From Candidatus Hadarchaeales archaeon (GTDB taxonomy: Archaea > Hadarchaeota > Hadarchaeia > Hadarchaeales > Hadarchaeaceae): a stretch of DNA of 64,000 nucleotides. Below the pieces are notes generated by a model. The model saw only the letters and a list, made by a program, of their open reading frames with translations, did not search any database and was not told the origin of the DNA. Where the stretch lies: contig JAWCLG010000002.1 of the NCBI GenBank assembly GCA_038851075.1, forward strand, positions 49,098 through 113,097. The letters run 5' to 3'. Below are positions 22,179-44,151 of this stretch, one piece after another (positions within the stretch are counted from its first letter, which is position 1; each line of letters opens with the position of its first letter). The position numbers and the translations under genes were made by a program.

Positions 22179-23031
22179 TCTTTATGAGATGCGTGCCGTC
22201 GCAGGTACCCCCGGTGTTGAGGTGTGGCAGGCCCTCCCTGCACGATGAGAACGTGACACCAGTTTCAAGGCAGGCGGCCCTGACAGAACGCATGAGATCC
22301 TCTCTAATTTTCTTAGGCAGGTACCATCCGCGTCTTTTCTCTCCTTTGTTGAAGTACAGGTCCCGTAGCTTTAGCGCCTCATCAGGAAAAGCGGATGAGA
22401 ATCTACGCCATCCATCGAGCCTTGGTTTGAATGTGGATGCAGTTACATGAGAAACACCGGCTTCGGAGGCAACCTCAACTATCTCCCTTACCTCGTCATC
22501 ATTGACGAATGGAATTATCGGATCGAGCCGTAGAGAAGTTGGCACACGTTTAGAGAGAGTTTTGATAGTGGCCAGCCTTAATGATGGCTTAGGTGCACCT
22601 GGTTCTAGCCTGCGGGCCAGTGAGTCATCAATAGTTGTGACGGTGAAACTTACAACGCATGGAATTTTTTTAAGCACGTCGAAATCACGAGCCACAATGT
22701 TTGATTTCGTAATTATCTGTACCCTGCATCCCTTTTTAGAGATGATCTCGAGACATTTTCTTGTGAGCCCGAGTTTTGCTTCAACTGGGGGATACGGGTC
22801 CGAACTGTTTGACATGCTTATTATGGTATTTGAATCCATTTTTTCGATATCACGTTCTACCTTAGAAATCAGGTCCTTTTTTTCTCTTGCCTCGAATGCA
22901 TTCGGTATATATGAGGAGATATAGCAGTAAACGCACGAGTGGGAGCACCCGGTATATGGATTCAGACCGTATTTTTTGGGACAGGTACAGAGGGGGTCTT
23001 TCCAAGGATCAAACTCTCTAACTACTGCCAT
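22171..23031 (-). CDS. Radical SAM protein, SplB-like (COG1533)
   Basis: FDPW..LCTCPKKY..NPYTGCSHSCVYCY, SDPYPP, LEPGAP....RL; start moved to ATG 23031. Confidence 0.88.
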   Translation of the reverse strand: MAVVREFDPWKDPLCTCPKKYGLNPYTGCSHSCVYCYISSYIPNAFEAREKKDLISKVERDIEKMDSNTIISMSNSSDPYPPVEAKLGLTRKCLEIISKKGCRVQIITKSNIVARDFDVLKKIPCVVSFTVTTIDDSLARRLEPGAPKPSLRLATIKTLSKRVPTSLRLDPIIPFVNDDEVREIVEVASEAGVSHVTASTFKPRLDGWRRFSSAFPDEALKLRDLYFNKGEKRRGWYLPKKIREDLMRSVRAACLETGVTFSSCREGLPHLNTGGTCDGTHLIKTT

Positions 23032-23051
23032 TTTCTCAGAAAAACGATAAC

Positions 23052-23327
23052 ACGCGCCGAGATAAAGGCCCCCACATCCCTCCAGACCCCGGGCGATGTA
23101 GCCCAGCCGAACCGCCAAGGGCAGCCCGCCGAACCACATCGTTCCGACCTTTTCAGATCGTGTGGTTACCCTTTCGAGTTACCACGCCGCGGCCCTGAGG
23201 AGACTCCGAACAAGTCTTGTCAGCCTGCTGTTCAGAACACCGCAGATCGGCCAATCTGCAGTGCCCCTACCAGTGGGATCCACCAAGACCCATTCTAGAG
23301 ACCTTCCGGATCGCCCTCTCGGCGCGT
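23052..23327 (-). ncRNA. Unassigned structured RNA (~276 nt)
   Basis: 11-bp terminal stem, several long G-U-rich hairpins, two GAAA tetraloops, TATA-like box ~25 nt upstream. Confidence 0.7.
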
Positions 23328-23347
23328 TTTTTACTCTATCTTCTTGG

Positions 23348-23360
23348 TTAAAAATTTTCC
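23348..23360 (-). promoter_or_regulatory. BRE/TATA-like promoter for the structured RNA
   Basis: Minus strand GGAAAATTTTTAA ending ~21 nt before the RNA 5' stem. Confidence 0.5.
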
Positions 23361-23429
23361 GTTGTGTATCCCTGTTCACAAAGGGTTAAATATGGGTCTC
23401 CACTAATCTCAAAAAACGGGAGGAGCCTC

Positions 23430-23567
23430 ATGCCAAGGTGCTGCCCCTCTTGCTATTTGTATGATGAATGCGAAAAAAGGGGAGAGTGCTGCGAGGAATG
23501 CGATTTTTACAGCAGGGGCAAGTGCATGTTAATGGACAAGGAATCTTATGGAATACTCGACAAATAA
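23430..23567 (+). CDS. Small Cys-rich putative metal-binding protein (45 aa)
   Basis: GGGAGGAG before ATG 23430; MPRCCPSC..C...CC..C...C with 8 Cys. Confidence 0.65.
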   Translation: MPRCCPSCYLYDECEKRGECCEECDFYSRGKCMLMDKESYGILDK

Positions 23568-23616
23568 CCAGAGGGCTAGGTTAATTAGATAGGTTAAATA
23601 TGTGAGGTGGGGGAGC

Positions 23617-24165
23617 ATGTCTTTGGATCCATTCGATGAGGACTTTTTCAAATATTTCTTCAAACGTTTCCGAGAGATAGAGAGAGAATTTCAGGAATTC
23701 GAAAAGAGATTTCAGATCGATCTTAGAGAATTTGAAAGAACGCCTGGGGTAAAGGGGTTCAAAATAGAGATAAGGGACACTGGGAAAGGAAGGCCCGAGG
23801 TAAAGGTTTCTAGATTCGGAGAGCCGCAGAAGATCAAGGTGGAAAAACCAGCTGCGGTTCTTGAAAATAAAAGAAAAATCGTTGAAGAAAAAAGAATCAG
23901 GCCGGTCAAAAAGATGCTTGATACAAATGTGTGCAAAATTGACAGACCGAACGAAGTTGTCATAACTATGCAAGCTCCTGAGGTGAAAAAGGAGGACGTT
24001 GACGTGAGAATAGTCGGGAGCACTGCCGAGATTATAGCAAGAAAACGGACCGGGGAAGCTTACTTCTGTACGGTCGAAATACCTAGCGACGTTGTGACGG
24101 ACGAAATAAAAAAATCCTTTAAAGGGGACATATTGATTGTCACAATTCCACGACGCAAGCTCTAA
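23617..24165 (+). CDS. Small heat-shock protein (Hsp20/alpha-crystallin family)
   Basis: DPFDEDFF N-terminus, PEVKKEDVDV, FKGDILIVTIP; start moved to ATG 23617. Confidence 0.8.
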   Translation: MSLDPFDEDFFKYFFKRFREIEREFQEFEKRFQIDLREFERTPGVKGFKIEIRDTGKGRPEVKVSRFGEPQKIKVEKPAAVLENKRKIVEEKRIRPVKKMLDTNVCKIDRPNEVVITMQAPEVKKEDVDVRIVGSTAEIIARKRTGEAYFCTVEIPSDVVTDEIKKSFKGDILIVTIPRRKL

Positions 24166-24225
24166 ATGCTCCCTGATTCTTCGGAAAGATATAACAATGG
24201 AAACCGACGTGTAGGAGGGGTGCTC

Positions 24226-25422
24226 TTGAAATATGTTATAGTGGTCGGGGACGGAATGTCTGATTATCCAGTACAGAAAATCGGGGGGAAGACACCGCTT
24301 CAAGTTGCGCATAAGCCGAATATGGACTGGATCGCCTACAACGGAAAAAGCGGACTTCTAAGGACAATACCCAAGGGAACAGATCCCGGCTCTGACATAG
24401 CAATAATGTCTATTTTGGGGTACGACCCGAAAAGGTTTCATACCGGAAGGGGGCCAATAGAGGCCGCAGCGCTTGGGATAAAGCTAGATGGGGGAGCCGT
24501 TGCCTTCAGGTGTAATCTGATAACAGCTGAGAACGGAATTATAAAAGATTACAGTGGCGGCCACATAACCACGAAGGAGGCAAAAAAACTTTTGGATGCT
24601 ATCTCCAAAAAGTACGGAAATATCGGGGAGTTCCACGTGGGGCTCAGTTACAGAAACATCTTTGTCCTAAAAAATGCACTTTTCGAAGCTGTAAAAATAA
24701 AGACCACCCCGCCACACCATGCAGTTGGGGACAAAGTCCTTGATAAACTGGCTTCGCCTAAGAAAAACAAAATTGCGCAGTTGATAAACGAGATGATGCT
24801 TGATTCAAAAAATATACTTTCAAATCATCCTGTGAACATACTTAGAGTCAAAAAAGGTCAGAACCCCGCCAACATGATATGGTTGTGGGGACAGGGAGGA
24901 AGGCCGGACATGCCAAGTATGAAGGAGAAATATGGCCTTGACGGTTCAGTTATATCCGCAGTTATGGTCGTGAAAGGTGTCGGCGCCCTTGCCGGGCTGG
25001 ATGCTCCAGAGGTACCTGGTGCAACAGGGTACTATGACACAAACTATAGCAACAAGGCAAGATATGCTTTGAAGGTCCTAAAGAAAAGGAACTTTGTGGT
25101 AGTCCATGTGGAAGCTCCTGACGAGGCAGGACACGAGGGCGATTTGGACGAAAAAATAAGGGCGATAGAAAACATAGATTCCAAAATTGTAGGAAAAATA
25201 CTTGACGGCATCGGGGACGAGGATTTTAAAATAGCTGTGATGGCTGATCATCCGACCCCTGTGGAGGTGAGAAGGCATACGTCAGATCCAGTACCGTTTT
25301 CGGTGGCATCGTCTACCAGCAGGGGAGACGGACTCAAATGTTATGATGAGGAATCCGCTAAAAAAGGATCTTTAGGGCTAATGATGGGTCCAATGTTTAT
25401 CAAAAAAATGATTGAAATTTGA
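24226..25422 (+). CDS. apgM: Cofactor-independent phosphoglycerate mutase family (ApgM / proposed homoserine kinase)
   Basis: GDGMSD, PGSDIA, HVEAPDEAGH, ADHPTP...H; first gene of the ACT-hom-thrC run; TTG start. Confidence 0.88.
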   Translation: MKYVIVVGDGMSDYPVQKIGGKTPLQVAHKPNMDWIAYNGKSGLLRTIPKGTDPGSDIAIMSILGYDPKRFHTGRGPIEAAALGIKLDGGAVAFRCNLITAENGIIKDYSGGHITTKEAKKLLDAISKKYGNIGEFHVGLSYRNIFVLKNALFEAVKIKTTPPHHAVGDKVLDKLASPKKNKIAQLINEMMLDSKNILSNHPVNILRVKKGQNPANMIWLWGQGGRPDMPSMKEKYGLDGSVISAVMVVKGVGALAGLDAPEVPGATGYYDTNYSNKARYALKVLKKRNFVVVHVEAPDEAGHEGDLDEKIRAIENIDSKIVGKILDGIGDEDFKIAVMADHPTPVEVRRHTSDPVPFSVASSTSRGDGLKCYDEESAKKGSLGLMMGPMFIKKMIEI

Positions 25423-44022: not shown

Positions 44023-44151
44023 GGGGCTGTGGTGTAGCTTGGTATCACGGCAGGCTCCAGTGGATGATGTGGGTCTTCTGACTGATGGATGATGACCCAC
44101 TGGAGCCGAAGAGACCTGCAAACCCGGGTTCAAATCCTGGCAGCCCCACCA
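44023..44151 (+). tRNA. tRNA-Trp (anticodon CCA) with ~53-nt intron at 37/38 (44061-44113)
   Basis: GGGGCTG acceptor, GCAGG-CT-CCA-G..A-CCTGC arm interrupted by intron, GTTCAAATC, 3' ACCA, T-run downstream. Confidence 0.93.
44061..44113 (+). ncRNA. Intron-encoded box C/D-like guide RNA
   Basis: ATGATGT (C), CTGA (D'), ATGATGA (C'), CCGA (D-like); guides complementary to the host anticodon arm. Confidence 0.7.

Follow-up and report, generated by a model that had tools for sequence, protein, structure and literature searches.

A gene on the minus strand of a 64,000-nt stretch of DNA from Candidatus Hadarchaeales archaeon (GenBank assembly GCA_038851075.1, contig JAWCLG010000002.1, positions 49,098 to 113,097; this whole stretch is called the window below) specifies an intricately folded RNA, about 250 bases in length, which is apparently excised from its transcript and circularised. 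Both the RNA family and the arrangement, a dedicated gene for a large structured ring that belongs to no known family, are new. The processing pathway, by way of the splicing endonuclease EndA and an RNA ligase, is already known and is not new. All in all, it is probable that this is a stand-alone gene of one Hadarchaeota family whose product is made as a ring and acts in trans as an independent non-coding RNA. The source genome (G000) is a 1.01-Mb assembly in 29 contigs with a completeness of 88%. No description of the RNA, nor of any non-coding RNA from Hadarchaeota, was found in a search of mainly open-access literature.

The clue to the ring lies in the stem that closes the precursor, which is a canonical bulge-helix-bulge (BHB) motif. 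In the accessible part of PMC6379350, this motif is defined as two 3-nt bulges separated by a 4-bp helix. The precursor has exactly these elements, with the two bulges on opposite strands and at opposite ends of the central helix (H), as in substrates of the archaeal splicing endonuclease; H is flanked by a longer outer helix (h) and a short inner helix (h') (Table 1). In an alignment of 32 homologues, H comprises 4 bp in 29 sequences; a length of 3 nt is kept by the 5' bulge in 29 and by the 3' bulge in all 32. Pairing in h and H combined reaches 98.8%, and of the 13 pairs in these two helices, 7 change on both sides. This includes all four pairs of H, in which 97.6% of cells are paired; one of them, for example, is GC in 18 sequences and AU in 13.

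A ring joined at this motif is seen in assembled RNA libraries. Four public runs were compared with positions 22600-23800, namely the RNA runs X3 and X8 (metatranscriptomes from one study) and the DNA runs X1 and X2. A 277-nt contig from X3 reads from 23248 to 23064 and then continues from 23310 to 23219; this amounts to a 247-nt circle whose ends overlap by 30 nt, as for a 31-mer assembly. A contig from X8 covers 23208..23310, followed by 22 letters (a strain variant of 23064-23085 with two differences) and then 23085..23116, and contains the same joint as the X3 contig. The joint is thus carried by two sequence variants, one of the G000 type and one from another strain. It lies between the second and third bases of the 3-nt bulges (GA/U and UU/A, the slash marking the cut), exactly at the predicted cleavage sites, and the two sides of the 23310-23064 joint share no letters. 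No such joint occurs in the DNA runs X1 and X2, which cross both 23064 and 23310 linearly, and no tandem copy of the locus is present among 32 genomic and 26 metagenomic loci. The RNA runs do not cover the flanking genes, to which no weight is given, as uncovered stretches in contig data are not evidence. At the level of contigs, the excised part is therefore found as a ring joined at the two cut sites in the bulges.

The mature ring has three arms, a closing hairpin and the arms D1 and D2, which meet at a conserved junction; its CUAG is kept in 31 of 32 sequences. The closing hairpin, of 10-11 bp, is part of the circular minimum free energy (MFE) fold and forms at both 37 and 60 °C, with the ligation site within its UCCG loop. 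Seven of its pairs are aligned; four of these change on both sides, and 87.4% of cells are paired. The 3' strand GGCCUU(U) has two partners. It pairs with GGGC in the BHB, or alternatively with AAGGUCUC in the closing hairpin, and covariation backs both pairings. The BHB pairing is limited to the precursor, since cleavage removes the GGGC strand. The RNA has a built-in switch: a single strand first takes part in the processing helix and afterwards in the hairpin that closes the ring. The usual partner does not fit in genus g12, where an insertion in the 3' region offers, by eye, another partner for the same 5' strand.

Compensatory change extends over the entire ring. Across the 32 sequences, 96.0% of cells in the mature structure are paired and 49 of 79 pairs change on both sides, compared with 24.5 +/- 2.8 in shuffled alignments (none of 500 reaches the observed value) and 13-21 in slid controls; in the basal stem of arm D1 alone, the proportion is 11 of 12. 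The 32-sequence alignment was fitted to the model and so favours the structure, a bias from which the result for a MAFFT-based alignment of 22 sequences is free: here, 43 of the 87 pairs predicted by RNAalifold show compensatory changes. Covariation, which a preliminary description of the locus made from the sequence of the window had proposed to look for, is strong.

Circles can also be mere stations in processing. Circular pre-rRNAs are intermediates in archaea according to the accessible text of PMC7714728 and PMC12918454, and the ring might similarly be an intermediate or by-product, like the circles made from pre-16S and from pre-23S rRNA, with the working form being linear (either re-opened or never processed). 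The contigs, which give no circular-to-linear ratio, leave room for this, as does the most divergent copy of the RNA, from genome G023 (L056:1001-1259, 69.6 bits): it keeps both arms and the overall fold without a BHB, its ends forming, by eye, one continuous stem of 12 bp that includes a small internal loop. We nevertheless regard this reading as distinctly unlikely. A helix that can form only once the BHB strand has been released is conserved with compensatory changes, the ligation site sits inside the tetraloop of that very hairpin, and the only joint in the X3 contig is the one that closes the complete 247-nt circle.

The stability of the predicted folds is in keeping with this picture. 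A 301-nt stretch of the minus strand has an MFE of -153.9 kcal/mol, compared with -112.2 +/- 5.2 kcal/mol after shuffling (z = -8.05; none of 100 shuffles equals it), while the plus strand of the same stretch gives z = -3.89. The abundance of G-U pairs likewise fits a minus-strand orientation. Folded as a circle, the 247-nt ring has z = -6.96, and none of 200 shuffles equals it. Every helix listed in the preliminary description was recovered on the minus strand, both in the sequence and in the MFE folds. These comprise a second stem, AAGGUCUC/GGGGCCUU (23304-23297 with 23073-23066), which in the closed ring proves to be the hairpin capping the junction; a 15-bp hairpin (23267-23253 with 23248-23234); two adjacent GAAA hairpins; and a long hairpin. 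The location of the element also stands, with slightly different limits: the conserved ends lie 2 nt further in than 23052 and 23327, as first given. By the same token, the terminal stem is present with 9 conserved base pairs, and the 11 bp originally described (23327/23052) are possible in G000 alone.

Table 1. Elements of the RNA gene, its precursor and the apparent ring; positions are those of the window.
Feature	Positions	Strand	Details
Promoter, BRE (B recognition element)/TATA	23360..23348	minus	GGAAAATTTTTAA; centre ~27 nt upstream of 23325
Conserved primary transcript body	23325..23054	minus	272 nt, GCGCCGAG ... CUCGGCGC; alignments A1 (22 sequences) and A2 (32 sequences)
Outer helix h	23325-23317 with 23062-23054	minus	9 bp, 99.3% paired
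Central helix H	23316-23313 with 23069-23066	minus	4 bp, GGGC with GCCU
3' strand of H	23069..23066	minus	GCCU; same bases later within closing hairpin of circle
5' bulge	23312-23310	minus	GAU, 3 nt
3' bulge	23065-23063	minus	UUA, 3 nt; bulges at opposite ends of H, on opposite strands
Inner helix h'	23309-23308 with 23071-23070	minus	CC with GG; short, as CC(GG)/GG
5' leader, predicted to be removed at BHB	23325..23311	minus	15 nt: 5' strand of h, 5' strand of H (GGGC), bulge bases GA (23312-23311)
3' trailer, predicted to be removed at BHB	23063..23054	minus	10 nt: bulge base A (23063) and 3' strand of h
Mature circular RNA (apparent)	23310..23064	minus	247 nt; 3' end U 23064 ligated to 5' end U 23310
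Closing hairpin, 5' strand with junction tetraloop	23310..23296	minus	UCCG loop 23310-23307; strand 23306-23296 pairs with 23074-23064
Arm D1	23295..23208	minus	12-bp basal stem, invariant internal loops GGAUCC / CAGCAGGCU, variable 15-bp tip, loop with GGCC
Arm D2	23204..23076	minus	Stem closing the junction, two GNRA-type hairpins (23185-23162, 23160-23145), long G-U-rich hairpin (23141-23094)
Oligo-T tract, probable archaeal terminator	23044..23040	minus	TTTTT; 10 nt past last paired base

The RNA also has its own signals for transcription. The TATA-like box that had been noted upstream is real and part of a conserved promoter: an equivalent BRE/TATA block (e.g. GAAAGTTATTTATGG), equally spaced from the transcript, is seen by eye in all 32 homologues. 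At the other end, a run of at least four T residues is found no more than 15 nt downstream of the last pair in 29 of 32 homologues. On the strength of these sequence signals, the RNA gene is predicted to be an independent transcription unit and not a leader.

A leader was one of the possibilities raised initially, and the genes around the RNA show why. In G000, an open reading frame (ORF) for a radical SAM protein (PF04055, 61.1 bits) begins on the same strand with an ATG at 23031, 22 nt past the last paired base of the RNA, and a radical SAM gene is located downstream in 12 of 23 RNA-bearing loci. The element might then be either a BHB intron in the 5' untranslated region (UTR) of this gene or a large cis-acting leader, with excision or folding controlling the gene. 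A precedent exists in Haloferax volcanii, where, according to the accessible text of PMC7714728, HVO_1309 has a 5'-UTR BHB intron; like the Hadarchaeota RNA, it is a BHB-flanked circle outside tRNA and rRNA and upstream of a protein gene. That intron measures only 46 nt as against 247 nt, and the same part of the source reports no conserved elaborate fold for it. The downstream gene of the Hadarchaeota RNA, moreover, is not constant. Where the radical SAM gene is present, its distance from the RNA ranges between 21 and 182 nt, and ogg lies directly downstream in its place in 8 of the 23 loci (in one of these together with a 26-amino-acid radical SAM remnant); 3 loci are not judgeable. Conversely, in G010 (L060) and G006 (L065), the radical SAM gene abuts a Cys-rich gene with no RNA between them, a clean absence. 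The oligo-T tract separates the RNA from the gene in 29 of 32 homologues, and it is the 247-nt "intron", not its flanks, that is conserved and covaries. A constant association with the radical SAM gene and transcription into it, by which a cis-acting leader or riboswitch would be recognised, is not what is found in these loci, and this reading is very unlikely. Given the variable downstream gene and the RNA's own promoter and oligo-T stop, the RNA should act in trans, and not on the radical SAM gene. For the latter, the promoter must overlap the 3' end of the RNA (a candidate is TTTAT, 23066-23062), or else expression must come from transcripts that run on beyond the T5 tract.

Homologues are readily found in related genomes, where BLAST returns full-length relatives at 69-91% identity. 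Our covariance model of the RNA, R1, scores 232.3 bits on the G000 copy and 69.6-306 bits on the 32 homologues in the alignment. Of the 45 other genomes from this Hadarchaeota family, 31 contain a copy detected by R1, and every RNA-bearing genome has a single copy. R1 detects none in 20 genomes from the other five families of the phylum, and only matches of 19.1 and 15.7 bits in 38 selected genomes (4 of them from other phyla); such searches lose weak matches, so that absence beyond the family is not thereby demonstrated. When the divergent copies from G023 and G069 served as BLAST queries against 9 genomes from genera g10 and g11, no additional copy turned up, and the regions upstream of radical SAM orthologues in three other families contain, by eye, nothing similar. 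The 21 matching public genome contigs are assigned to Hadesarchaea or Hadarchaeota in 19 cases. The RNA is also carried by L080 (Bathyarchaeota, a 3.7-kb contig) and L079 (Candidatus Hodarchaeaceae), probably through errors in binning or naming.

Within the family, the RNA has been retained in genomes of about 1 Mb from at least nine genera; genus g6 and the majority of g10 and g11 have lost it. In G018 (genus g11; L062:1565-1803), a decayed remnant scoring 10.6 bits is present at the syntenic place; arm D2 can be recognised, and D1 is mostly gone. Patchiness of this kind, with a decayed copy in G018 and clean absence in G010 and G006, would suit a selfish or domesticated intron of the archaeal rRNA or tRNA type that has settled in an intergenic spacer and serves no cellular function, the more so as the excision signals are the same as those of archaeal introns. 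Several features make this highly improbable. The RNA is single-copy everywhere and always occupies the same neighbourhood (ogg, the Cys-rich gene and apgM), it has a conserved promoter of its own, and its loops and junctions are invariant across genera at an overall identity of 69-76%. Viral contigs yielded 0 matches to a 24-base gapped pattern. That an uncultivated lineage of the deep subsurface and hot springs, with genomes of about 1 Mb, keeps a 270-bp non-coding gene argues for a real function.

Known RNA families do not account for the element, and its original designation as a novel non-coding RNA has held: its homologues are conserved with compensatory changes, and no Rfam family reaches threshold. 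With Rfam 15 at gathering score, the 64-kb window contains only three tRNAs. At E <= 10, the region 22950-23450 (501 bases) gives five matches at chance level, among which there is no RNase P, MRP or signal recognition particle (SRP) RNA; the best, DUF3800-VI, spans 38 nt and scores 23.5 bits against a cut-off of 35. Six homologue loci gave 0 matches at E <= 0.1. Box C/D and H/ACA guide RNAs were considered and set aside, there being no snoRNA-type Rfam match; GUGAUG-like and CUGA strings do occur in the RNA, in different arms, and by eye are not conserved. As to coding potential, the longest stop-free run on the repeated circle is 77 codons in each frame, which is less than one turn.

RNase P deserves particular attention, since a very divergent RNase P-like RNA was among the first suggestions; a paralogue might be an MRP-like second P RNA, or alternatively derive from SRP RNA. 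Archaeal RNase P RNA of type A (RF00373) resembles the Hadarchaeota RNA in its size of ~270-290 nt, its terminal stem, its layout in more than one domain (two in the Hadarchaeota RNA) and its GNRA-type loops. In addition, GGAAGGUC and GGCCUUUAU just inside the terminal stem seemed to echo the conserved regions CR-I and CR-V, as judged against what we take to be the consensus of these regions. The echo does not survive analysis of the fold. The bases concerned form the central helix of the BHB in the precursor and the nested closing hairpin in the ring, without a P4 pseudoknot; the candidate P4 strands make up a nested helix that encloses both domains, and the bases 5' of the 3' strand are variable. 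Thus, unlike RNase P RNA, the Hadarchaeota RNA fails the covariance model and has neither the pseudoknot nor the conserved CR regions. The question whether canonical RNase P and SRP RNAs exist elsewhere in the genome can also be answered: G000 has an RNaseP_arch gene on contig C12 (208 bits) and an Archaea_SRP gene (RF01857) on contig C10 (127.6 bits). On these two loci, R1 reaches at most 11.7 bits, with that match lying outside the RNase P gene, and the window contains no match to RF01857. RNaseP-T (RF02357) has no match in G000, a result that is uninformative in that the control was silent too. Altogether, descent from RNase P or SRP RNA is extremely unlikely.

The proposed biogenesis has five steps. 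Judging by the promoter and terminator sequences, transcription would start ~27 nt downstream of the BRE/TATA centre and mostly stop at the oligo-T tract. The two ends of the transcript then pair into the BHB, as shown by covariation, whereupon EndA, the presumed enzyme, would cut after the second base of each bulge, at positions that match the observed junction. The ends would be joined into the 247-nt circle (23310 to 23064), whose junction is present in the RNA-library contigs, probably by the ligase RtcB. Finally, the freed 3' strand of the central helix would pair anew with AAGGUCUC to give the closing hairpin and hence the three-arm ring, as fold and covariation indicate. RtcB is encoded in G000 on contig C8 (601.9 bits). 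Two further RtcB-like fragments lie about 1.4 kb apart at G000:C3:103233-104972, with two stop codons in the first; they could be an intein-split or a broken second copy.

Several observations weigh against this scheme. EndA (PF01974) itself was not found in the 88%-complete assembly of G000; single ORFs of 174-239 amino acids encode it in 24 of 26 relatives searched, including some of the same genus, and its absence from G000 is taken to be an assembly gap. The inner helix h', which is present in 30 of 32 homologues by either of two criteria, is weak: at least 2 contiguous base pairs are formed in only 10 of 32, and at least 3 bp with one base skipped in 22 of 32. The EndA proteins of Hadarchaeota relatives look like the single-subunit type, which bears on this weakness. 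Since the G023 copy lacks the BHB, ring closure may not be essential, and the RNA of G023 may stay linear. The ring itself rests on assembled contigs from one study; an RNA library can contain DNA, and the contigs do not give strand, ends or the circular-to-linear ratio. The RNA was not found in 14 of 45 genomes of the family, including the near-complete G010 (95%, 9 contigs) and G011 (94%), and it is dispensable in lineages without it. Last, any function ascribed to the RNA is a guess.

What the ring might do can only be guessed at from its shape. It would be expected to resist exonucleases and to be stable to heat. Its invariant junction and internal loops, together with loops that are presumably of the GNRA and UAA/GAN-like types, indicate a probable compact tertiary fold. 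Folds of this kind are typical of RNAs that act as scaffolds for proteins, assemble with themselves or are catalytic. Our best guess, held with low confidence, is a stable trans-acting ring of one of the first two kinds; a ribonucleoprotein scaffold as the specific role is a tentative proposal that falls short of being probable.

Self-assembly is suggested by the tip loop of arm D1. Its GGCC is found in 30 of the 32 genomic copies and in 24 of the 26 from metagenomes, and the sole variant is AGCU, which is also self-complementary and occurs in two sequence backgrounds (G036 (L042)/L144 and L140). There are no single-base variants of GGCC among the 58 copies. Overall sequence likeness suggests that the two AGCU events were independent. 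The pattern would fit a loop-loop contact between two rings; it would equally fit pairing with a GGCU in the 3' strand, which is present in both AGCU carriers. A bolder reading, which we consider doubtful, is that the RNA is the first of a class of archaeal circular RNAs, encoded by genes and closed at a BHB, that work as rings with an elaborate tertiary fold, either as a homodimer or larger body assembled via the D1 GGCC, or as a ribozyme with the invariant three-way junction as its active site.

In size and intricacy, the RNA is similar to OLE, GOLLD, ROOL and raiA. These large, lineage-restricted RNAs have their own promoters and roles that are unknown or have only recently been glimpsed, and some of them self-assemble via loop-loop contacts; all are bacterial or phage RNAs and linear. 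The Hadarchaeota RNA, in contrast, is archaeal and ring-shaped, and has no Rfam match to any of them. With it, the very few large orphan RNAs known from the Archaea are joined by one more.

In terms of processing, the nearest relatives are the archaeal BHB circles, that is, tRNA introns (including the C/D-bearing intron of tRNA-Trp) and pre-16S/23S rRNA. The signal, the cut positions and the ring product are the same, and the pathway described in the accessible parts of PMC6379350, PMC7714728 and PMC12558985 consists of EndA followed by an RNA ligase. In contrast with these circles, the Hadarchaeota RNA interrupts no host gene; its "exons" are a 15-nt leader and a 10-nt trailer for which no role is evident. 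What is conserved and structured is the excised product, and it is neither rRNA nor (by eye) a guide RNA nor a short-lived intron. The permuted SRP RNA of Thermoproteus, as presented in the accessible part of PMC4731332, is likewise a functional non-coding RNA with its own gene that is BHB-processed and ligated into a ring. There, closure restores a known RNA from its permuted form, whereas the Hadarchaeota RNA keeps the order of its helices in both precursor and ring and belongs to no known family. Circular forms of a structured archaeal non-coding RNA are also seen for the omega RNAs of Halobacterium IS200/IS605 elements; from the accessible text of PMC12558985, these lack a BHB and are located at transposase genes, whereas the Hadarchaeota RNA has a BHB and no transposase nearby. 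The archaeal circular RNA surveys, to the extent that PMC12558985 and PMC3326292 are accessible, list rRNA, tRNA, 5S, SRP and omega-RNA classes.

So far, archaeal BHB rings have been known as introns, as rRNA intermediates, as a single short intron in a 5' UTR and as a permuted SRP RNA. That a dedicated gene has as its sole evident product a conserved, intricately folded 247-nt ring of no known family widens the uses of the tRNA-splicing machinery. The RNA is, furthermore, amenable to testing in vitro.

Some of the genes next to the RNA have properties worth recording. The Cys-rich gene (23430-23567, plus strand) is a small ORF that is divergent from the RNA and encodes 45 amino acids, including eight Cys; it has no match in Pfam. 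Of the 45 family genomes, 39 carry it, RNA-less ones included. A link between the two was considered and rejected, as the Cys-rich gene is kept with or without the RNA and there is no signal of co-occurrence. In line with the Cys-rich ORF and apgM follows an ORF of 187 amino acids (23602-24165, plus strand) with weak matches to HSP20/CS domains (E 0.006-0.04). The overlapping minus-strand ORF 23581-24312 (243 amino acids) belongs to no family, is poorly conserved and is probably not a gene.

The window contains a second candidate substrate for the same type of cleavage. A tRNA-Trp(CCA) gene at 44023-44148 (plus strand), matched by Rfam and not called by ARAGORN, has a 53-nt intron in its anticodon loop; G000, in which EndA was not detected, therefore has an intron-bearing tRNA. 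If a 7-nt anticodon loop is assumed, the intron bulges would be AG/U and AG/A, with the same cut position and topology as in the RNA gene. In the BHB of this tRNA, the central helix contains one C-A mismatch and the inner helix is 2 bp long. Box C/D-like strings have been described for euryarchaeal tRNA-Trp introns, and the intron in the window contains the strings GAUGAUG, CUGA and UGAUGA.

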